DNA from: a virus | Lineage: Duplodnaviria; Heunggongvirae; Uroviricota; Caudoviricetes | DNA length: 57,087 nucleotides | Virus record (IMG/VR): IMGVR_UViG_2561511241_000005 | Coordinates: 1 to 57,087 of that record | Direction: 5' to 3' (one strand) | Shown: in pieces, positions 2,226 through 18,369 of the stretch | Layout of the letters: each line of letters starts with the position of its first letter | Numbering within the stretch: the first letter of the stretch is position 1 | Position numbers and translations under genes: made by a program | The notes under the pieces: generated by a model | The model's database searches: none | Told to the model about the DNA's origin: nothing | What the model saw: the letters and a program-made list of their open reading frames with translations, nothing else

Positions 2226-2657
2226 TCATTGCCCCCAGCGTTTTATGAATTCCTCGTTTAATTTCGTATCACCCGACCATTGAACATCATGTTCAGCGCC
2301 GAACGAGTAAATCAATTCGATCAGTTCACTGAATTCTGATTTACTCATTCGACTTGTTGACGTTCCCAATACAACGAAGCCGGATTTATCCAGGTTAGGG
2401 ACGACGCCATATTTCTTAAGTCCGGCAGTGAATACCGCTTTCCAGTCTTCCGGTGACAGCTTTTTACCGTACCAATTAACCTGATCGCTAATGTCGGTTA
2501 ACAGCGCCCAAAGCAACGCATTTTGGCTTAGCGAGCGGGTTTTCTCCTGGATGGTAATTATCAGCGGGCTTTTGCTATCAGGCTGGATCTCTCTTATCTG
2601 CCTGATAGCATTTTCTTTCACGGCGTCGTTTACTATCTCAAATCTAATTTGCCTCAT
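2226..2657 (-). CDS. ninB: NinB-family recombination protein
   Basis: 143 aa; motif ...PLIITIQEKTRSLSQNALLWALLTDISDQVNWYGKK... resembles lambda NinB. Confidence 0.75.
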   Translation of the reverse strand: MRQIRFEIVNDAVKENAIRQIREIQPDSKSPLIITIQEKTRSLSQNALLWALLTDISDQVNWYGKKLSPEDWKAVFTAGLKKYGVVPNLDKSGFVVLGTSTSRMSKSEFSELIELIYSFGAEHDVQWSGDTKLNEEFIKRWGQ

Positions 2658-7378: not shown

Positions 7379-8446
7379 TCAAAGAACGCCAGCGCGCGTA
7401 TCACGTAGCGTTTTTGGTTTAAGCAGGAAATCAAGTGTCGCAGTGAAGCCATTGCCGAAGTAAAAATCTGAAGCCGTGTTTTTGAACGTTTCAAAGTAGG
7501 CGACAAAGCCGTTAATGCTTTTGTCTTTCAGGTAGTCAGTGAACGCATAGATCTTGCGTTCAAGATCCCGATCCAGTTCGGCAGGTGGTAACAGACCGTC
7601 AAACGTGCTGTTAAATGCTTCCACCACGTCGGCGGCGTTTACAGTAGCTGATAGCTTGCGCCATTGTTCAGCATCAGCCAGATACCCATCGAATTTAGTT
7701 ACCCGGCAAATGTTGATAGGCTTAGGTGTTCCACCACGGCTACGCCATTGCGTTAAAGCCCACTCAATTACTAACGTGATCTCATCCTCCGTATATGCCT
7801 TACGTGTTTTTGTTTCTGTCAGTAGTTCGATGAATGGCTTAGCGTCACGACATTTGCATCCTGCTTTTTCGTTGTAGAAGGCTAAGCAACGGTAAGCTGC
7901 CTCGCTTATCTGAAAGTAACCACCCTGATTGACCGTTTTTTGTTCATTTTCGCTAATACACGAAGTGTATATATCTTTTTCTATTTCTTCTTCTAATTCT
8001 TCTTCTAATTCTAATTCATGACCCTGACATGACCCGGTCATGACCCTATCATGACCTTTTGGCGTTGGGTTGATTAACTTTTCTAATTTGAATTGTTCTT
8101 TTGCTGCATTTATAGCAGCTCTGTAACCACTCTTAGAAGTCATTGATTGGTCCAGCCTTTTCAATAACTTTAAACAAGTTATGTGTCCTTGAGAACATTC
8201 AAATAAACCAATTTCGATGAAGTATTTCATCATTTCTTCTATACGTTTTTCAGTAGATCCGACGTTTCGCGCAATGATTCTCGCGTCATGTCGTAGGTCA
8301 AAAGTCAGATTGTGCTGATCTACGTCATAAGTAATTAATTCAAGGCAATACCAGTAAAGACCGTATCCTTCCAGGCCATAATCAAGCAAAACGTTTTGAA
8401 GTTTTTCGTCGCGGTTCGCATCGCTATCATGCTTAAACCACTTCAT
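7379..8446 (-). CDS. Replication initiation / replisome organiser protein (O-like)
   Basis: 355 aa; N-terminus MKWFKHDSDANRDEKLQ...GYGLYWYCLE typical of phage replisome-organiser N domain; GGAGGA RBS; contains iterons. Confidence 0.75.
   Translation of the reverse strand: MKWFKHDSDANRDEKLQNVLLDYGLEGYGLYWYCLELITYDVDQHNLTFDLRHDARIIARNVGSTEKRIEEMMKYFIEIGLFECSQGHITCLKLLKRLDQSMTSKSGYRAAINAAKEQFKLEKLINPTPKGHDRVMTGSCQGHELELEEELEEEIEKDIYTSCISENEQKTVNQGGYFQISEAAYRCLAFYNEKAGCKCRDAKPFIELLTETKTRKAYTEDEITLVIEWALTQWRSRGGTPKPINICRVTKFDGYLADAEQWRKLSATVNAADVVEAFNSTFDGLLPPAELDRDLERKIYAFTDYLKDKSINGFVAYFETFKNTASDFYFGNGFTATLDFLLKPKTLRDTRAGVL
8017..8056. repeat. Putative origin iterons: four direct CATGACC(C) repeats at 11-bp spacing inside the replication gene
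   Basis: CATGACCC at 8017, 8028, 8039 and CATGACC at 8050, flanked by AT-rich sequence and an acidic ELELEEELEEE-coding repeat. Confidence 0.5.
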
Positions 8447-8449
8447 AGA

Positions 8450-8704
8450 TCATTCCTCCGGCAGCATTACCAGGTAAACGTCATTTACCGGGTAAGGGTT
8501 ACAAATAAATCCTTTGTGTGTTAATCCGTCGATAGCAACCATTACCGTATTTACAGGAAGTTCACACATTTTTGCGATTTCTTGGTGTGACACCCTGGCG
8601 TGGCGGCGATTATCCGCCTTTTCTGCCAACGCCATTAAGACAAGTTTTTGAATCGGGCTGTTAAGTTCCACTTTCCAGGCCTCAGTCATCATGTGCATAC
8701 TCAT
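8450..8704 (-). CDS. HTH DNA-binding protein at the cro position
   Basis: ATG at 8702-8704 with AGGAGA RBS; 84 aa; HTH-like segment SHQEIAKMCELPVNTVMVAIDGL; first gene of leftward operon. Confidence 0.5.
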   Translation of the reverse strand: MSMHMMTEAWKVELNSPIQKLVLMALAEKADNRRHARVSHQEIAKMCELPVNTVMVAIDGLTHKGFICNPYPVNDVYLVMLPEE

Positions 8705-8821
8705 TGCTTTTTCTCCTATGGTTAAAATGAACGCGAGGGCGGGTATCCCATTAGCATTAGATAGCAGTGACTGACCGCTCAACAGATCCCGCCGTTGCGT
8801 GATATTTGTTTTTCGCTTCAC

Positions 8822-9011
8822 AGCGACACCGGGTTTTTAAAGAGCTTTTAAGGTATGTGCCTTTTTGTGCTTTCCATTATCTTTTTTCTTGCATCCTTGC
8901 AAGTATGGCCTTACCTTGTCTGCAAGTTTACAGAATGGAGTTTTAAGATCAAGGCTTGAAAAATACGTTTTGTGACTTGCGTCAAACTTTTTGAGGTTAT
9001 AGGGTAGCGAC
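8822..9011. promoter_or_regulatory. Divergent promoter/operator region between cro-position gene and CI-like repressor
   Basis: 190-bp intergenic region with repeated CTTGCA(AG) palindromic elements (8888-8927) and AT-rich promoter-like hexamers. Confidence 0.4.
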
Positions 9012-9659
9012 ATGAAAACAAAATGGTATGACTTAGCAAAGCAGCTTATGCGTGCGCAAGGCATGAGCCAGGATTCATTGGCGGATCTCATGGGGATCAC
9101 GAAAGGCGGCTTATCACACTGGCTGAATGGTCGCCGTGAGCCAAATCTTGAAGACATTGCGCGGATTATGCGGGCGCTTGGTCGTCGGCAATTCACTGTT
9201 ACACACGATGGAATGGTCATAGATGATTCTGTTTCTAACACGTTACCGGGCGCGCCACCGCGTGATTTAGGCAGTTACCCGGTTGTTGACTGGAAGGACG
9301 CAGTAAACAATATGGAAGATACAAGGCGATCAACATTACCACACGTTACAACTAGCGTTATTTGTTCAGATGATAGTTATTGGCTGGTAGCTAAAGGCGA
9401 ATCAATGAACGCGCCGCAAGGATTGAGTATACCAGCTGGGACGATGATACTTGTCGATCCGCACGCGCCAGCTATTGACGGAAAACTGGTTATAGCCCAA
9501 CTGGAGGAAGGGCAAACGCCTACGTTTAAACAGCTTGTTATTGATGGAGGTCAAAGGCTTTTACGTTCGCTCAATCCGCTGTATCCGCCAATCCCTATGA
9601 ATCCAGAATCTAAAATCATAGGTGTGGTAGTGGACGCGAAGATCGTAAACCTGCCATAA
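9012..9659 (+). CDS. CI-like repressor (HTH-XRE N-domain, S24 LexA-like peptidase C-domain)
   Basis: 215 aa; HTH near N-terminus; GESM (Ser) and TFKQL (Lys) self-cleavage dyad motifs. Confidence 0.85.
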   Translation: MKTKWYDLAKQLMRAQGMSQDSLADLMGITKGGLSHWLNGRREPNLEDIARIMRALGRRQFTVTHDGMVIDDSVSNTLPGAPPRDLGSYPVVDWKDAVNNMEDTRRSTLPHVTTSVICSDDSYWLVAKGESMNAPQGLSIPAGTMILVDPHAPAIDGKLVIAQLEEGQTPTFKQLVIDGGQRLLRSLNPLYPPIPMNPESKIIGVVVDAKIVNLP

Positions 9660-9665
9660 ATATTA

Positions 9666-9690
9666 GCCGCCGGATGGCGGCCTTTCTTTG
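9666..9690 (+). terminator. Rho-independent terminator after repressor gene
   Basis: GCCGCC-ggat-GGCGGC hairpin followed by T-rich run. Confidence 0.5.
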
Positions 9691-9783
9691 CCCGTAAAAT
9701 CACCAAAACGTAAACCAAAAACGGTTTTTATCATTTAAATATCAATGATATAGAAAATATTTTAAAAAAGTATACAAAATGGA

Positions 9784-9812
9784 TTGACTCGGTATATCAC
9801 AGGGCGTATATT
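9784..9812 (+). promoter_or_regulatory. PL-like sigma70 promoter
   Basis: TTGACT - 17 bp - TATATT; recurrent GTATACAAAATGG motif immediately upstream. Confidence 0.45.
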
Positions 9813-10066
9813 GCGAATCAAAGGAAGGAGGCAGGAAACAAAAAGCGCCTTCCTGGCACTTTAAAAATCAGGCTTAACACCTTGTCAACCGTGGAGTAAC
9901 TCCCCCGATGGGGGACCGAAAGCGGCACTGATAACAAGGCGCATGGGGTGTATAAAGCGTCACATCCCCCACGAAACCGCACGCAAGGCGACGAGTCAGC
10001 TTGCTTGGAGTGAGCAGGGTCACACCGGAAACGGCGATGATTGCGGGATTAGTTGAAAGATGTTAA

Positions 10067-10106
10067 GCCATTCTTTAACAATCTGGTCAGCCGCTGGAAG
10101 TGCGGC
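10067..10106 (+). promoter_or_regulatory. nut-like site (boxA-like TCTTTAACAAT plus boxB-like hairpin)
   Basis: TCTTTAACAAT at 10072-10082 matches boxA core; GCCGC-tggaagt-GCGGC hairpin at 10090-10106; located in leader upstream of N-like gene. Confidence 0.4.
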
Positions 10107-10162
10107 AATTAACGAAGATGATTTTTTATTAAGTATCATCAAGGATATAAGGAGATCAGATC

Positions 10163-10453
10163 ATGACAGTTACAATCATGTATGGCAAATGTGACAGTAA
10201 ACTGAATGCCAGGGAACGCAGAAGAATAAAAAGAGAAAACGAAAGAAAATCATCACCTGCAATTAATAAAACAGACAATGTGGATAAAGCTATTCGCTTT
10301 GCAAACGAGGAAAGATGCAAACCAAATAGCATTAAAGAACGTCGCAAAGGATCAGTAAAATGGTATACGGAAAACGAAAGCGGCAACTACTACCACGCAA
10401 CGCAACCACGCCAACTAGGTGAAAAACCCCTGGATAAAGTCCGCTACCATTAA
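10163..10453 (+). CDS. N-like transcription antiterminator (arginine-rich motif)
   Basis: 96 aa; N-proximal NARERRRIKRENERK arginine-rich motif; AAGGAG RBS; position downstream of PL-like promoter and nut-like site. Confidence 0.45.
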   Translation: MTVTIMYGKCDSKLNARERRRIKRENERKSSPAINKTDNVDKAIRFANEERCKPNSIKERRKGSVKWYTENESGNYYHATQPRQLGEKPLDKVRYH

Positions 10454-10483
10454 TACAAAATGTAAACAGCAGGAGGTGACATT

Positions 10484-10603
10484 ATGGTTATCGAGGCGCT
10501 TCAATTCAAACTGGCTGTAGCGGAAATGCTTCACGATGCCGAAATGTGGAGCGCCGCGAATAAAGCCTTATACGTAGTGTTAACAGCGAAGGAGATTAAA
10601 TAG
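10484..10603 (+). CDS. small hypothetical protein (39 aa)
   Basis: Strong AGGAGGTGA RBS; stop overlaps GTG start of erf. Confidence 0.4.
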   Translation: MVIEALQFKLAVAEMLHDAEMWSAANKALYVVLTAKEIK

Positions 10604-11238
10604 TGAAAACAGAGTTACACAAAAAGCTGTGGACGATTCAGCAAACGCTGAACGCGCCGAAAAATCAGCGTAATAATTTTGGCGGGTATAATTACAGGTC
10701 GGCGGAGGATATTCTAGAGGCGGTTAAACCACTGCTTCAAAATATCACGCTGACTGTTAGTGATGAAATCGTCCTGATCGGCAATCGCTATTATGTGAAA
10801 GCAACGGCGACACTAAGCGACGGTGAAGACGAAATATCGGTAACTGCTTACGCCAGGGAAGAAGAAAGCAAGAAGGGAATGGACGCAAGCCAGCTAACTG
10901 GCGCGACATCAAGTTACGCGCGAAAATATGCTTTGAACGGCTTATTCTGCATTGATGACGCAAAAGATCCTGATACTGATGCTTACGCGAAACAGACAAA
11001 TCAACAGCCGCGACAGCAGAAAAACCCGCCAAAACAACAGCAGCAGAAAGCGCCGCCAAATCCTGATGAAGTATTAGCACGTTTCTGTGATGCAGCAGCA
11101 AAAGCGCCTGACGCTAACAAGTTACGCGAGATCTTCGGCAAGTGCTGGAAGCTATTGCCTAAGGATTCAGAACAACAACAGAAAGCGAAAGACGTTTATG
11201 ACATTCGCTTAAAAGAGCTTAACGGGGAGATCAATTAA
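10603..11238 (+). CDS. erf: Erf-family single-strand annealing recombination protein
   Basis: 211 aa; NAPKNQ...GGYNYRSAEDILEAVKPLL...YYVKATATLSDGE...SYARKYALNGLF closely resembles P22 Erf. Confidence 0.85.
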   Translation: MKTELHKKLWTIQQTLNAPKNQRNNFGGYNYRSAEDILEAVKPLLQNITLTVSDEIVLIGNRYYVKATATLSDGEDEISVTAYAREEESKKGMDASQLTGATSSYARKYALNGLFCIDDAKDPDTDAYAKQTNQQPRQQKNPPKQQQQKAPPNPDEVLARFCDAAAKAPDANKLREIFGKCWKLLPKDSEQQQKAKDVYDIRLKELNGEIN

Positions 11239-11654
11239 TGAGTTTAAATTCAATCACGCTGGGCGGGAATATCGGTAATGATATGGAAGTGCGCTACACG
11301 CAAAACGGGAAAGCTATTGGTAGTTTTCCGTTAGCTGTAACGAATGGCTACGGCGATAATAAGCGGGTAATGTGGATCACTTGTCTGGTATTTGGTGAGC
11401 GTGCGGAAAAATTAGCGCCGCATATCCGCAAGGGTGGAAAGATAGTGGTAAGCGGTCGCCTGGATGTTCGGCAGTTTGACCGGAACGATGGCACGAAGGG
11501 GACGGCGGTCGAAGTGGCGGTTAATGAGTTCGAATTCATGAACGTCAACCAACAAGGCCAGCAGCAAGGCCAGCAGCAGAAAGCGCCGCCGCAGCAGCAG
11601 AATAATAACGGGAATAATCCGCCGATGGACTTCGACGACGATATTCCTTTTTAG
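11238..11654 (+). CDS. ssb: Single-stranded DNA-binding protein
   Basis: 138 aa; OB-fold SSB pattern, Gln/Gly-rich linker and acidic C-terminal tail DDDIPF. Confidence 0.9.
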   Translation: MSLNSITLGGNIGNDMEVRYTQNGKAIGSFPLAVTNGYGDNKRVMWITCLVFGERAEKLAPHIRKGGKIVVSGRLDVRQFDRNDGTKGTAVEVAVNEFEFMNVNQQGQQQGQQQKAPPQQQNNNGNNPPMDFDDDIPF

Positions 11655-14444: not shown

Positions 14445-14637
14445 ACACTATAAAGAATGGAAAATTCCAGAATCAGCAACAAAGGCAGCGCCAGGAAATT
14501 TTTCTGGCGTTTATTTTTATATGGATGGCAAATGGTATTTCGGCAGCAGGCCAGATCACTATTATCAGGAAATATGCAAGCCTCACGTTTGGGATATTAA
14601 AGAGCGTGTAAAAGACGGGGTGATTGAGGACGTTTAA
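14434..14637 (+). CDS. hypothetical protein
   Basis: 67 aa ORF. Confidence 0.45.
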   Translation: MKFKHYKEWKIPESATKAAPGNFSGVYFYMDGKWYFGSRPDHYYQEICKPHVWDIKERVKDGVIEDV

Positions 14638-14638
14638 A

Positions 14639-14875
14639 ATGGTTAAGAGCTTTTTAAACTGGTTGGGAGCGTGGCTTTTAGCTACGCTTTTTGTTTTCCT
14701 GGCGTTCATGGCTGTTATCGTTGTTATTATGCTGGGGGCAATGTTTATTACGTGGTCACTGCCTGAATTTAACGAAATAGGCGAGATCCTTGCCGCAGGG
14801 CGCGCTTTATTAACGGTTAGTGCATTTATCGGGTTTTGCTGGACTGCCGCGCCAGATTGGGATGATCCTTTTTAA
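14639..14875 (+). CDS. small membrane protein (two predicted TM helices)
   Basis: ATG 14639 with GAGGA RBS; hydrophobic segments. Confidence 0.45.
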   Translation: MVKSFLNWLGAWLLATLFVFLAFMAVIVVIMLGAMFITWSLPEFNEIGEILAAGRALLTVSAFIGFCWTAAPDWDDPF

Positions 14876-16144: not shown

Positions 16145-16628
16145 CAGGTTACTGGCCTGCGTTTATGTCGCCGTTTTCGTGATCATAAATCTTATTGTTA
16201 ACCATTGCGGCCCGTGGGTAATTCCGATCACCACGGTAGCCGCCGTGTGTGTCAATATGATGATCCGTGACTTCCTGTTATATGACGGCGGCCTGAAATG
16301 GTCGGCTACAACATGCGCCGCCGCTGGCGCAATCACTGTGCTGATAAATTACGACGCCGGAATGGTGGCGATCGCGTCATTTGTCGCGGTTGTTTCCGGT
16401 GCGCTTATTTCTGGTGGCGTTTACCGGGTTTTACCTGGTGATTTCGATTCAAAACGATGGCCTGCAAATATAGCGTCCGCCATTGGTGATGCGTTAATTT
16501 TCCCGACGCTATCGTTTATGGCGTTTATGCCGGAAATATCAGCGATGCAATTCATCTCAAAAATGGCAGCGGTAACGGTGATCACCATCATCATGCGCCG
16601 CTATTTCACGTTTGAGGGCAGAAAATGA
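16125..16628 (+). CDS. integral membrane protein (about five TM helices)
   Basis: ATG 16125 with AAGGA RBS; highly hydrophobic 167 aa; stop overlaps next start. Confidence 0.55.
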   Translation: MKRVMIDRLLACVYVAVFVIINLIVNHCGPWVIPITTVAAVCVNMMIRDFLLYDGGLKWSATTCAAAGAITVLINYDAGMVAIASFVAVVSGALISGGVYRVLPGDFDSKRWPANIASAIGDALIFPTLSFMAFMPEISAMQFISKMAAVTVITIIMRRYFTFEGRK

Positions 16629-17413
16629 GCAGGGCTAAACATTGGTTAAATAATTGGCTTAGAAATTGGGTGGTATGGTCGCTGTACGACGGCAGCGGGT
16701 ACGCCGTTAAAGATTGGGCGGACGCTGGTTATAAATGTTATTGCTTCAACTATGACGGCGCTAATCACGGTGATTATGACGGTGTAAAAATAATTCATCC
16801 AAATATTGAATATGTTAACGTCTGGATTGATAGCCATTTTCTGGTAATGTTCTCCCCTGAATTGTCTGTATATCCAGATCCTGACATTATCCTGGCTTTT
16901 CCTCCGTGCGATGATCTCGCCGTGTCCGGCGCTCGCTGGTTCGCTGATAAGCGGAAGAAAGACCCTTACTTTCAGCAGAAGGCAGCGTATAACGCAAAGT
17001 TAGTAGAAACGCTGGCGAGTATGTATAACGTGCCGTGGATGGTGGAAAATCCTGTAGGCGCACTGTCAACGTTATGGCGTAAACCGGATTTTATCTTCAA
17101 TCCGTGCGCTTACGGTGGCTACCTGCCGGAAGATGATAAGCATCCCGCTTTCCCGGAATACATTGCCGACCGCGACGCCTACACGAAGAAAACTTGTATT
17201 TGGTGCGGGAATGGATTTAAGCAGCCGCTATTCCGTCCTGTGCCGATGCCAGATGAATGGGAAGACAGTAAGCAGCACGCGAAGTTAGGCGGAAAATCAA
17301 AGCGAACAAAGATGATCCGCTCACTAACGCCGCGTGGCTTCGCCCGTGCTGTATTCCTGGCTAACGACCGGGCCATCAATCGTACTACGCTCAACCGCGT
17401 TTTGCCGGACTGA
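16625..17413 (+). CDS. Putative SAM-dependent DNA methyltransferase, C5-cytosine-like motifs
   Basis: 262 aa; DGSGY (motif I-like), FPPCDDLAVSG (PC motif IV-like), MVENPVG (ENV motif VI-like). Confidence 0.5.
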   Translation: MSRAKHWLNNWLRNWVVWSLYDGSGYAVKDWADAGYKCYCFNYDGANHGDYDGVKIIHPNIEYVNVWIDSHFLVMFSPELSVYPDPDIILAFPPCDDLAVSGARWFADKRKKDPYFQQKAAYNAKLVETLASMYNVPWMVENPVGALSTLWRKPDFIFNPCAYGGYLPEDDKHPAFPEYIADRDAYTKKTCIWCGNGFKQPLFRPVPMPDEWEDSKQHAKLGGKSKRTKMIRSLTPRGFARAVFLANDRAINRTTLNRVLPD

Positions 17414-17451: not shown

Positions 17452-17572
17452 TAATGGCGCTTTACACCTTGTTAGCACGTATCCATTTTGTATACTTCAA
17501 GCAAACAAAATGCTCTTTAAAAATCCGGCAGCGCTGAAATGCGTAGAAATCACCTGAAAAGGAGAGAGCATT

Positions 17573-17763: not shown

Positions 17764-18369
17764 ATGCAAAACCCTAAAAAACCCATAAGACGCCGTTGCA
17801 AGTGCTGCGGCGTTTTTTTTGAGCCTAAATATCATAATCAAACGTGGTGCAGCGATGAATGTCTGGAAGAACTGAAGTTTGACCAGCTATGCCGCGACCG
17901 TGAGAAGGCTATGAAGGCTATGGAGCGGAAGAAACGCCGTGATAGCCAGAGGGAAGAACGCAACCGGAAGCGTAAACAGTTAAATCCGCGTAGTTATTGG
18001 ATCAAACAAGTTCAAAATGTATTTAACGCCTATATTCGCGAACGTGACGCGCGCTTGCCGTGTATATCTTGCGGGACTTACTACGGTGAGCAATGCGGGT
18101 GGGATGCAGGTCATTACAGGACGGTAGCCGCCGCCGGACATCTTCGCTTTAACGAGGATAATTGCCATAAACAATGTAGGCACTGCAACCAGACATTAGA
18201 CGGGAACATAGGAGGGTATCGCCCGGCACTGATTCGAAAAATTGGCCTCGCCAGGGTGGTGGCGCTGGAAAACAACAATGATACGCATAAATGGACGATC
18301 GCAGAATGTAAGGAGCTAATAAACATCTATCAGGCTAAATTGGACGCCTTAAGGAGAAAGGCAGCATGA
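17764..18369 (+). CDS. ninG: NinG/Rap-family recombination protein
   Basis: ATG 17764 with GGGGTGG RBS; about 201 aa; cysteine-rich CKCCG...C..C pattern and position before rusA. Confidence 0.8.
   Translation: MQNPKKPIRRRCKCCGVFFEPKYHNQTWCSDECLEELKFDQLCRDREKAMKAMERKKRRDSQREERNRKRKQLNPRSYWIKQVQNVFNAYIRERDARLPCISCGTYYGEQCGWDAGHYRTVAAAGHLRFNEDNCHKQCRHCNQTLDGNIGGYRPALIRKIGLARVVALENNNDTHKWTIAECKELINIYQAKLDALRRKAA

Follow-up and report, generated by a model that had tools for sequence, protein, structure and literature searches.

The stretch of DNA analysed here, hereafter the window, comprises 57,087 nucleotides (nt) of a tailed virus of the class Caudoviricetes (IMG/VR record IMGVR_UViG_2561511241_000005, positions 1 to 57,087), and its positions 9784-10453 hold an early promoter, a leader of about 345 nt and the gene for an N-like antitermination protein. 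Embedded in the leader is a 199-nt structured RNA element (9871-10069, + strand), which is our main subject. Upstream lies, on the same strand, the gene of a CI-like repressor of 215 amino acids (aa) (9012-9659), which by its HTH_3 and Peptidase_S24 domain matches and by the annotation of its relatives is a homolog of Rep021 of phage mEp021, and directly 3' of this gene an intrinsic terminator (9666-9681, + strand), a hairpin with six G-C pairs followed by the T-rich tail CTTTCTTT and the counterpart of TERM_1 in the mEp021 record. A sequence-only reading of the window had described a near-consensus promoter downstream of a repressor terminator, and both features hold up: the PL-like early promoter TTGACT-17-TATATT (9784-9812, + strand) is the top sigma-70 match within 8400-11400, with 10 of 12 positions, and its -35 and -10 hexamers are invariant in all seven aligned relatives; promoter-like sites as a class are not enriched in that interval (6 found vs 5.1 expected). 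The early transcript is predicted to start near 9819. Overlapping the -35 hexamer is a 16-mer, ACAAAATGGATTGACT (9774-9789), which recurs with 14 of its 16 positions at 9018-9033, the start of the repressor open reading frame (ORF), and has seven matches in the window at up to three mismatches where 0.72 are expected. The 16-mer may be operator-like, or the matches may stem from A-rich composition.

The leader ends in a candidate nut site, nutR1, made up of a boxA (10070-10081, + strand; ATTCTTTAACAA), the spacer TCTGGTCA and a boxB-like hairpin (10090-10106, + strand; GCCGC-TGGAAGT-GCGGC), which is recovered in the predicted fold and whose exact 17-mer occurs once in the window. A Shine-Dalgarno sequence, AAGGAG (10149-10154), then precedes the gene for the 96-aa N-like antiterminator (10163-10453, + strand), a small basic protein with the N-terminal arginine-rich stretch NARERRRIKRENERK at residues 15-29, as had been noticed from the sequence. 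The 800-base region is 92-96% identical to phages mEp021, mEp515, mEp010, mEp044, mEp013, mEp554 and MagusPhagus, and matches single-copy prophages in 34 of 5426 complete E. coli genomes. The protein itself is an ortholog of Gp17 of mEp021 (mEp021_17), with 94 of 96 residues identical (98%), R17, R19, R20, R21 and R24 all present and the synteny of the locus the same, and it gives a full-length match to PHROG 271 ("anti-termination protein N-like", E = 2e-11). According to the parts of PMC11893012 that deal with this system, experiments (Valencia-Toxqui et al. 2023, cited there) have shown Gp17 to be an N-lambda-like early antiterminator, its Arg17, 19, 20 and 24 are invariant in 48 phages, and its targets are nutR1 upstream of gp17, nutR2 downstream of a methyltransferase gene and nutL upstream of the repressor gene; the same parts describe the mEp collection as Nus-dependent and report Nus-factor-dependent read-through of terminators for mEp021 Gp17.

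The leader as a whole folds better than shuffled sequence (z = -2.8 for 9819-10175), and about 215 nt of it are an indel among the aligned relatives. The insert is present in the window, in mEp021, mEp515, mEp010 and MagusPhagus (four of the seven phage records) and in 30 of the 34 prophages, and absent from mEp044, mEp013, mEp554 and the remaining four prophages. In phages without it the junction reads TTGCTCTTTAACAATCTGG, a perfect rrn-type boxA (TGCTCTTTAACAA, identical to what we take to be the rrn boxA consensus) followed by the same boxB. A boxA-like element had been claimed for the window, and it is indeed present at 10070-10081, but only its AACAAT part is common to all relatives, the TCTTT part falling at the insert junction; a perfect copy, GCTCTTTAACAA, is found in one contig (L035) and in the phages without the insert. 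At the left junction, the scan for boxA-like strings found a degenerate extra copy, GCACTTTAAAAA(TCAGGC) (9856-9867, + strand), and the left flank that begins at 9856, GCACTTTAAAAATCAGGC, is identical in 16 of 18 positions to the boxA and spacer of the nutR2 candidate of the same phage (GCTCTTTAAAAATCCGGC, 17512-17529), which suggests that a recombination event in which a nut region took part gave rise to the long leader allele. The leader 5' of the insert also differs between the long and the short alleles, so that a mosaic allele is a better description than simple transposition; a 5' leader hairpin, AGGAAGG / CCTTCCT (9822-9854, + strand), appears in the minimum free energy (MFE) fold of the long leader allele only, the sequence being different in phages without the insert. 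On the minus strand (9862-9842), this hairpin is followed by TTGTTT and scores as terminator-like, and a weak minus-strand promoter-like site lies inside the element (10066-10037). An antisense transcript is conceivable there, although the G-U pairs described below favour a fold of the + strand.

The element forms a four-way junction closed by the 9-bp helix P1 (9871-9879/10061-10069), a structure for which the indel, the homologs, the covariation, RNAalifold and a covariance model all provide evidence; its helices and joining strands are given here on the + strand. The first arm consists of P2 (9880-9885/9934-9939), P2a (9889-9892/9922-9925), which adjoins an AGUA/GAA loop-E-like internal loop, and the hairpin P3 (9901-9915, TCCCC(C)-GAT-(G)GGGGA, with the helix 9901-9905/9911-9915). 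The second is P4 (9945-9951/9962-9968, GGGGTGT-ATAAAGCGTC-ACATCCC), whose conserved 10-nt loop has the form (A/U)UAAAGCGU(N), and the third is P5 (9977-9981/10042-10046), which encloses the hairpins P6 (10000-10006/10012-10018) and P7 (10023-10027/10032-10036), the latter with a GAAA loop. Conserved joining strands read CGC(U)A, CCACGAAA (J4/5, 9969-9976) and (G/A)A(U/C)UAGUUG (J5/1, 10047-10055; GATTAGTTG in the window). P3 and P4 are the two GC-rich hairpins that the sequence-only reading had seen at about 9895-9970 and had offered as possible additional RNA elements; their positions (9901-9915 and 9945-9968) and the compensatory changes in relatives bear this out, and the suggestion was an understatement, as they are two helices of a modular 199-nt RNA.

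Base pairs were counted over 20 distinct sequences of the two phage lineages that carry the element (see below), which were segmented by hand and N-padded, as MAFFT on its own did not align the 3' half correctly between the two lineages. Standard pairs occupy 98.8% of the 960 cells, double-sided (compensatory) changes are found in 28 of the 48 pairs, and the covariation score is 0.528, compared with 0.03-0.11 when the partners are slid by 1-3 columns. RNAalifold, run on the hand alignment, returns the same eight helices, with 26 of its 50 predicted pairs compensatory. Junction and loop sequences are common to both lineages, about 50 unpaired nucleotides being conserved while the stems covary. 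Changes that keep pairing also occur within lineages, in P1, P4, P6 and P7 overall: P6 covaries within the coliphage lineage, with three pairs in the STEC308 type, and P1, P4 and P6 within the other. Sixty-seven G-U cells would be A-C on the opposite strand and fit only the + strand, which identifies the RNA of this strand as the one that folds. With the covariance model, the window contains a single copy, at 238 bits, and the copies of the second lineage score 139-146 bits. Two further proposals were rejected: tertiary pairings proposed by eye (the P4 loop with ACGC, CUGAU with AUUAG) find no support in the Klebsiella and L045 variants, and a resemblance of P3 to type I-E CRISPR repeats does not outlast the second lineage, where the stem sequence is replaced.

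This second lineage consists of 9NA-like phages. A weak blastn match (E = 0.06) led to the early leader of Salmonella phage 9NA, in which a whole stretch of 190 nt proved homologous to the element once it was read with the structure. Copies are found in Sergei, Solent, two Sashavirus records, four Klebsiella phages and several IMG/VR or metagenome contigs, always unannotated. Here, the element begins 2-4 nt after the predicted start of an early promoter of the form TTGACx-17-TATxxT, which diverges from the terminase gene, and is followed in each sub-lineage by a different small gene. Seven 9NA-like contigs with 93-97% identical TerL and the same promoter have a leader of about 35 nt and no element. 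In the contigs L049, L050, L051, L053, L054, L056 and L059 (about 2350-2500, minus strand), this promoter and short leader are followed by a different first gene in nearly every contig, and by these comparisons mosaicism apparently has a hot spot at the early leader locus of 9NA-like phages. Hardly any proteins are common to the mEp021-like and 9NA-like groups; one of the very few shared by both element-carrying groups is a 262-aa ORF at the published position of the methyltransferase gene (16625-17413, + strand, upstream of the nutR2 candidate), which has 58% identity to an ORF in L045, a 9NA-like contig.

In 30 E. coli genomes and in every phage record there is one copy of the element per genome, at the same locus. 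Four pattern scans of viral contigs returned mEp021-like and 9NA-like contigs only and no third lineage, two scans of genome collections gave no matches and then six chance matches, and one metagenome scan gave 11 matches of the mEp type, one of the 9NA type and four by chance, again with no third lineage; a TerL-based search for 9NA relatives reached close relatives only, most of which are without the element. By its distribution, the element appears to be an optional module in two unrelated phage groups, exchanged horizontally between them.

Searches against known RNAs gave no identity. No Rfam 15 family matches the window region or the Klebsiella and Sashavirus copies at E-values up to 10, the only overlap being a noise match at the 3' end; ARAGORN reports no tRNA or tmRNA in it; and a terminator can be set aside for lack of a U-tract on the + strand. 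Our literature searches returned no description of this RNA, and those parts of PMC11893012 that describe the mEp021 system mention neither the 199-nt insert nor its absence from mEp044, mEp013 and mEp554. Judged from its sequences, the element represents a structured RNA family that is well supported, apparently undescribed and confined to enterobacterial phages.

The nut anatomy around the element follows the mEp021 system. The window has more strings resembling boxA than expected (14 vs 6.2, at up to two mismatches); the best of them lie at the three predicted nut positions, and in each case a short hairpin follows after 7-8 nt. The nutR2 candidate (17512-17544, + strand) combines the boxA GCTCTTTAAAAA (17512-17523), TCCGGCA and the boxB GCGC-TGAAAT-GCGT, and lies just 3' of ORF 16625-17413, which fits the position downstream of the methyltransferase gene given for nutR2 in print. 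The nutL candidate (8813-8845, minus strand) combines the same boxA, GCTCTTTAAAAA (8845-8834), with CCCGGTGT and the boxB TCGCT-GTGA-AGCGA, and its position upstream of the repressor gene, read leftward, agrees with the description of nutL in PMC11893012. The mechanical start of an ORF on the minus strand (8450-8821) is a GTG inside this boxB candidate; relatives annotate a shorter, 81-aa helix-turn-helix protein, and the true start is, by this comparison, probably an ATG further downstream. The protein matches N-terminal domains of replication initiators (phrog_4617, E = 2e-16).

In the STEC308, RM9245 and E21845 prophages (L003/L004/L005, locus positions about 1935-2264), a 73%-identical Gp17 with an altered arginine-rich motif (NARARRRMKRAAEQ) accompanies an altered boxB, GCTAC-TGAAAT-GTAGC. 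That the two change together is the behaviour expected of a cognate protein-RNA pair, and from the sequences the phage group seems to include a second specificity type. Together with the 98% identity to Gp17, these variants support the proposal, made from the sequence, of N-type processive antitermination, with a boxA and boxB at the published nutR1 position. It is already known: promoter, nut site and N-like gene are Gp17/nut biology to which we add nothing new. Downstream in the rightward operon are two strong intrinsic-terminator-like sites with T-rich tails (14487-14511 with 11 pairs and 14665-14691 with 12 pairs, both + strand) and, about 270 nt after the nutR2 candidate, a third such site with a stem followed by eight T (17794-17812, + strand). 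Directly 3' of the N-like gene, a 39-aa ORF (10484-10603, + strand) weakly resembles lambda Kil (PF06301, E = 2.8e-4; phrog_34942, E = 4e-28) and is followed by genes for an ERF recombinase (10603-11238) and a single-stranded DNA-binding protein, SSB (11238-11654), a content that parallels that of the PL operon of lambda and P22.

Put together, the strong sigma-70 promoter would start the leader that ends in the nut site (10070-10081 and 10090-10106) and the N-like gene. By analogy to lambda N, and as reported for mEp021, the protein would bind the boxB hairpin through its arginine-rich motif, and protein, boxA and host Nus factors together would make RNA polymerase resistant to the terminators at about 14.5, 14.7 and 17.8 kb, with the further nut sites at about 17.5 kb (rightward) and 8.8 kb (leftward) presumably serving the remaining early genes. 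For the 98%-identical Gp17, antitermination, its dependence on nut sites and Nus-dependent phage growth have been shown experimentally by others, as stated in the sections of PMC11893012 on this system.

We therefore consider it highly probable that the region is the early rightward control region of a temperate coliphage of the mEp021 group (mEpimmI), with a separate 199-nt RNA module in its leader. Several observations weigh against this, on the side of the cassette and on that of the RNA. No repressor operators could be identified at the promoter, there being no convincing motif that it shares with the divergent promoter region. Kinship with classical N proteins, suggested by the match to PHROG 271, finds no support in pairwise alignment, as BLASTP finds no similarity between the 96-aa protein and lambda N (E = 31), and Pfam N_peptide stays below its cut-off (E = 0.0094, 16.9 bits vs 27.9). 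The loops of the three boxB candidates, TGGAAGT (7 nt), TGAAAT (6 nt) and GTGA (4 nt), are purine-rich and differ from the GNRA-like pentaloop of lambda and P22, and the nutR1 candidate agrees with the literature at the level of described position only. As to the RNA, the alignment behind the pair counts was fitted to the structure by hand, most double changes separate the two lineages only, and for the 9NA copy the thermodynamic z-score does not stand out (-0.55). The module is dispensable, since the operon is laid out in the same way in phages that lack it. What the sequences establish is the identity with the mEp021 system, the make-up of the nut sites, and the modularity and base-pairing of the insert; the function of the RNA is inferred.

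Our preferred reading of that function, held tentatively, is an autonomous, immediately expressed accessory RNA that would bind a host factor or a component of a defence system. We favour it since the element is transcribed first, folds autonomously, is indifferent to the gene downstream, is dispensable and is horizontally exchanged, all of which is typical of accessory early functions. Second in rank, and possible, is an effect in cis on the elongation complex or on the stability of the leader. More specifically, the RNA might be a cis-acting element of processive antitermination, comparable to put of HK022 or EAR of Bacillus and independent of the genes that follow, a proposal that we regard as possible but already on the doubtful side. 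On the transcribed strand, the element invariably separates the early promoter from the first gene, whatever that gene is; in the mEp021 lineage it is nested in the nut region between two boxA-like strings; and there is no terminator 3' of it, hence no obvious release as a separate RNA. On the other hand, siblings with the same operons and terminators lack the element, the mEp021 lineage already has Gp17, and the early operon of Sergei, a 9NA-like phage, has no annotated terminator. In addition, the covariance model, run with filters off on the HK022 nun-cI-cro region that includes putL and putR, finds nothing beyond a noise match of 8.8 bits in IS903, and a 199-nt four-way junction is a different architecture from that of put, which we take to be two adjacent stem-loops of about 70 nt.

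Ranked third, and doubtful, is a sensor that gates boxA or a ribosome-binding site. In the rather unlikely riboswitch-like version that we can specify, formation of P1 would free the boxA of nutR1 (in 9NA-like phages, the ribosome-binding site), and without P1 its 3' strand would pair with that site. The roughly 50 conserved unpaired nucleotides among covarying stems recall aptamers, and the 3' strand of P1 with its flank, AGATGTTAAG, can pair with CTTTAACA-ATCT of boxA; indeed, the alternative hairpin AGAUGUUAAG / CUUUAACA-AUCU is the local MFE structure when the 5' strand of P1 is left out, and similar short complementarities lie beside the Shine-Dalgarno sequence or start codon in L045, BDX09P1 and KP13-27. 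Yet in eight of nine cases the complementarity is no better than in shuffles (fraction at least as good 0.07-0.5; 0.006 in L052 alone), nothing comparable was seen in 9NA, and we find no conserved expression platform, no link to metabolic genes and no Rfam riboswitch match. A wider formulation, a new phage regulatory RNA in the nut site that acts either through a factor- or ligand-sensing P1 domain gating boxA or the first ribosome-binding site, or as a protein-independent modifier of the elongation complex, seems unlikely as well; were it true, the state of the host would be linked to early gene expression and N-type antitermination. To a ribozyme, or something else again, we likewise assign a low probability.

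The remaining alternatives survive less well. That the hairpins are mere structure of an N-gene leader (an attenuator, for instance, or a site of RNase III processing), without an identity of their own, has the location of the element in an N-like leader in its favour, and a precedent in lambda, whose N leader contains an RNase III-sensitive structure that affects translation of N. We nevertheless find it very improbable. The element also occurs in phages where no N-like gene follows, and siblings that share gp17 and boxB lack it; its helices are all too short for a typical RNase III site, and a U-tract follows none of them. Even less probable is that the insert is not an RNA at all. ORFs are annotated there in mEp021 and MagusPhagus (gp16, 37 aa, 9943-10056), but this ORF matches no protein family, in 9NA-type copies has no ATG and meets a stop after 21 codons, and carries non-synonymous substitutions that keep the base pairs. 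A DNA transposon of the miniature inverted-repeat transposable element (MITE) type would account for 9-bp terminal inverted repeats (GGCTTAACA / TGTTAAGCC) and, as a duplicated target, for the boxA-like strings on both flanks, but its single copy and fixed locus per genome speak against it, and the "inverted repeats" covary as a helix (P1, five of nine pairs) whose G-U pairs mark one strand. Least credible of all is an HK022-type exclusion module in which the arginine-rich protein, like Nun, would terminate the transcription of other phages: the only pairwise similarity to a classical protein is indeed to the arginine-rich motif of HK022 Nun (12 of 37 identical, E = 0.002 in a single comparison), but the protein is 98% identical to a reported antiterminator and has its own matching nut sites ahead of terminators, and there is no put-like RNA.

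The value of the locus thus lies in its leader, in an RNA of about 200 nt with conserved junctions and covarying helices that stands between two boxA sequences of a working nut site, is always the first thing transcribed, and passes as a module among unrelated enterobacterial phages. There are natural variants with and without it: mEp021, mEp010 and mEp515 carry the element and mEp044, mEp013 and mEp554 lack it, and, as all six are cultivated on E. coli K-12, its function is directly testable. Whatever its role may be (anti-defence decoy, polymerase modifier or sensor), it would add an RNA player to early phage development, and it may also explain the "higher variability of nutR1" noted in the literature. 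It raises the interest of a known cassette from low to moderate, the cassette itself serving to place the window in the mEpimmI group.

Among known systems, the orphan structured RNA motifs that comparative genomics has brought to light in phages, such as those in Rfam, are comparable in kind, being likewise recognised from covariation, from conserved junctions and from their phage setting; they differ in that neither lineage of our element is matched by an Rfam 15 family at E = 10. With the put RNAs of HK022, which act in processive antitermination independently of a protein, it shares position only, as structured RNA directly after an early promoter; there is no match in sequence or structure, and our element is about three times larger, built around a four-way junction, present once per genome and optional in close relatives. 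The likeness to rrn-type boxA leaders lies in the boxA TGCTCTTTAACAA of the phages without the insert and in the boxA-like string directly before the long-range helix P1, as boxA stands before the 16S processing stem, although here boxB follows boxA, as in lambda, and the 9NA-type copies have no boxA; by this analogy, a role as an RNA folding chaperone might be entertained as a speculation.

The PL operon of lambda, with N and nutL, is matched in the early promoter beside the repressor gene, in a boxA, spacer and boxB upstream of the gene for a small arginine-rich protein, in the terminators downstream and in the recombination genes and Kil-like ORF of the operon. Differences are the lack of pairwise protein similarity to N, boxB loops of 4-7 nt, the number of nut sites (three) and the structured RNA upstream of boxA; moreover, nutL of lambda is near the promoter, with a large structure after it, whereas here the nut site is about 270 nt from the predicted transcript start and 57 nt from the start codon. 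The mEp021 system (mEpimmI), with Gp17 and the sites nutR1, nutR2 and nutL, agrees throughout: repressor gene, terminator, promoter, leader, gp17, Kil-like ORF, ERF and SSB follow in the same order, the protein is 98% and the DNA 95.6% identical, the nut positions match the description, and the differences are small sequence changes only, such as the boxA ATTCTTTAACAA here in place of GCTCATTAACAA in mEp021.

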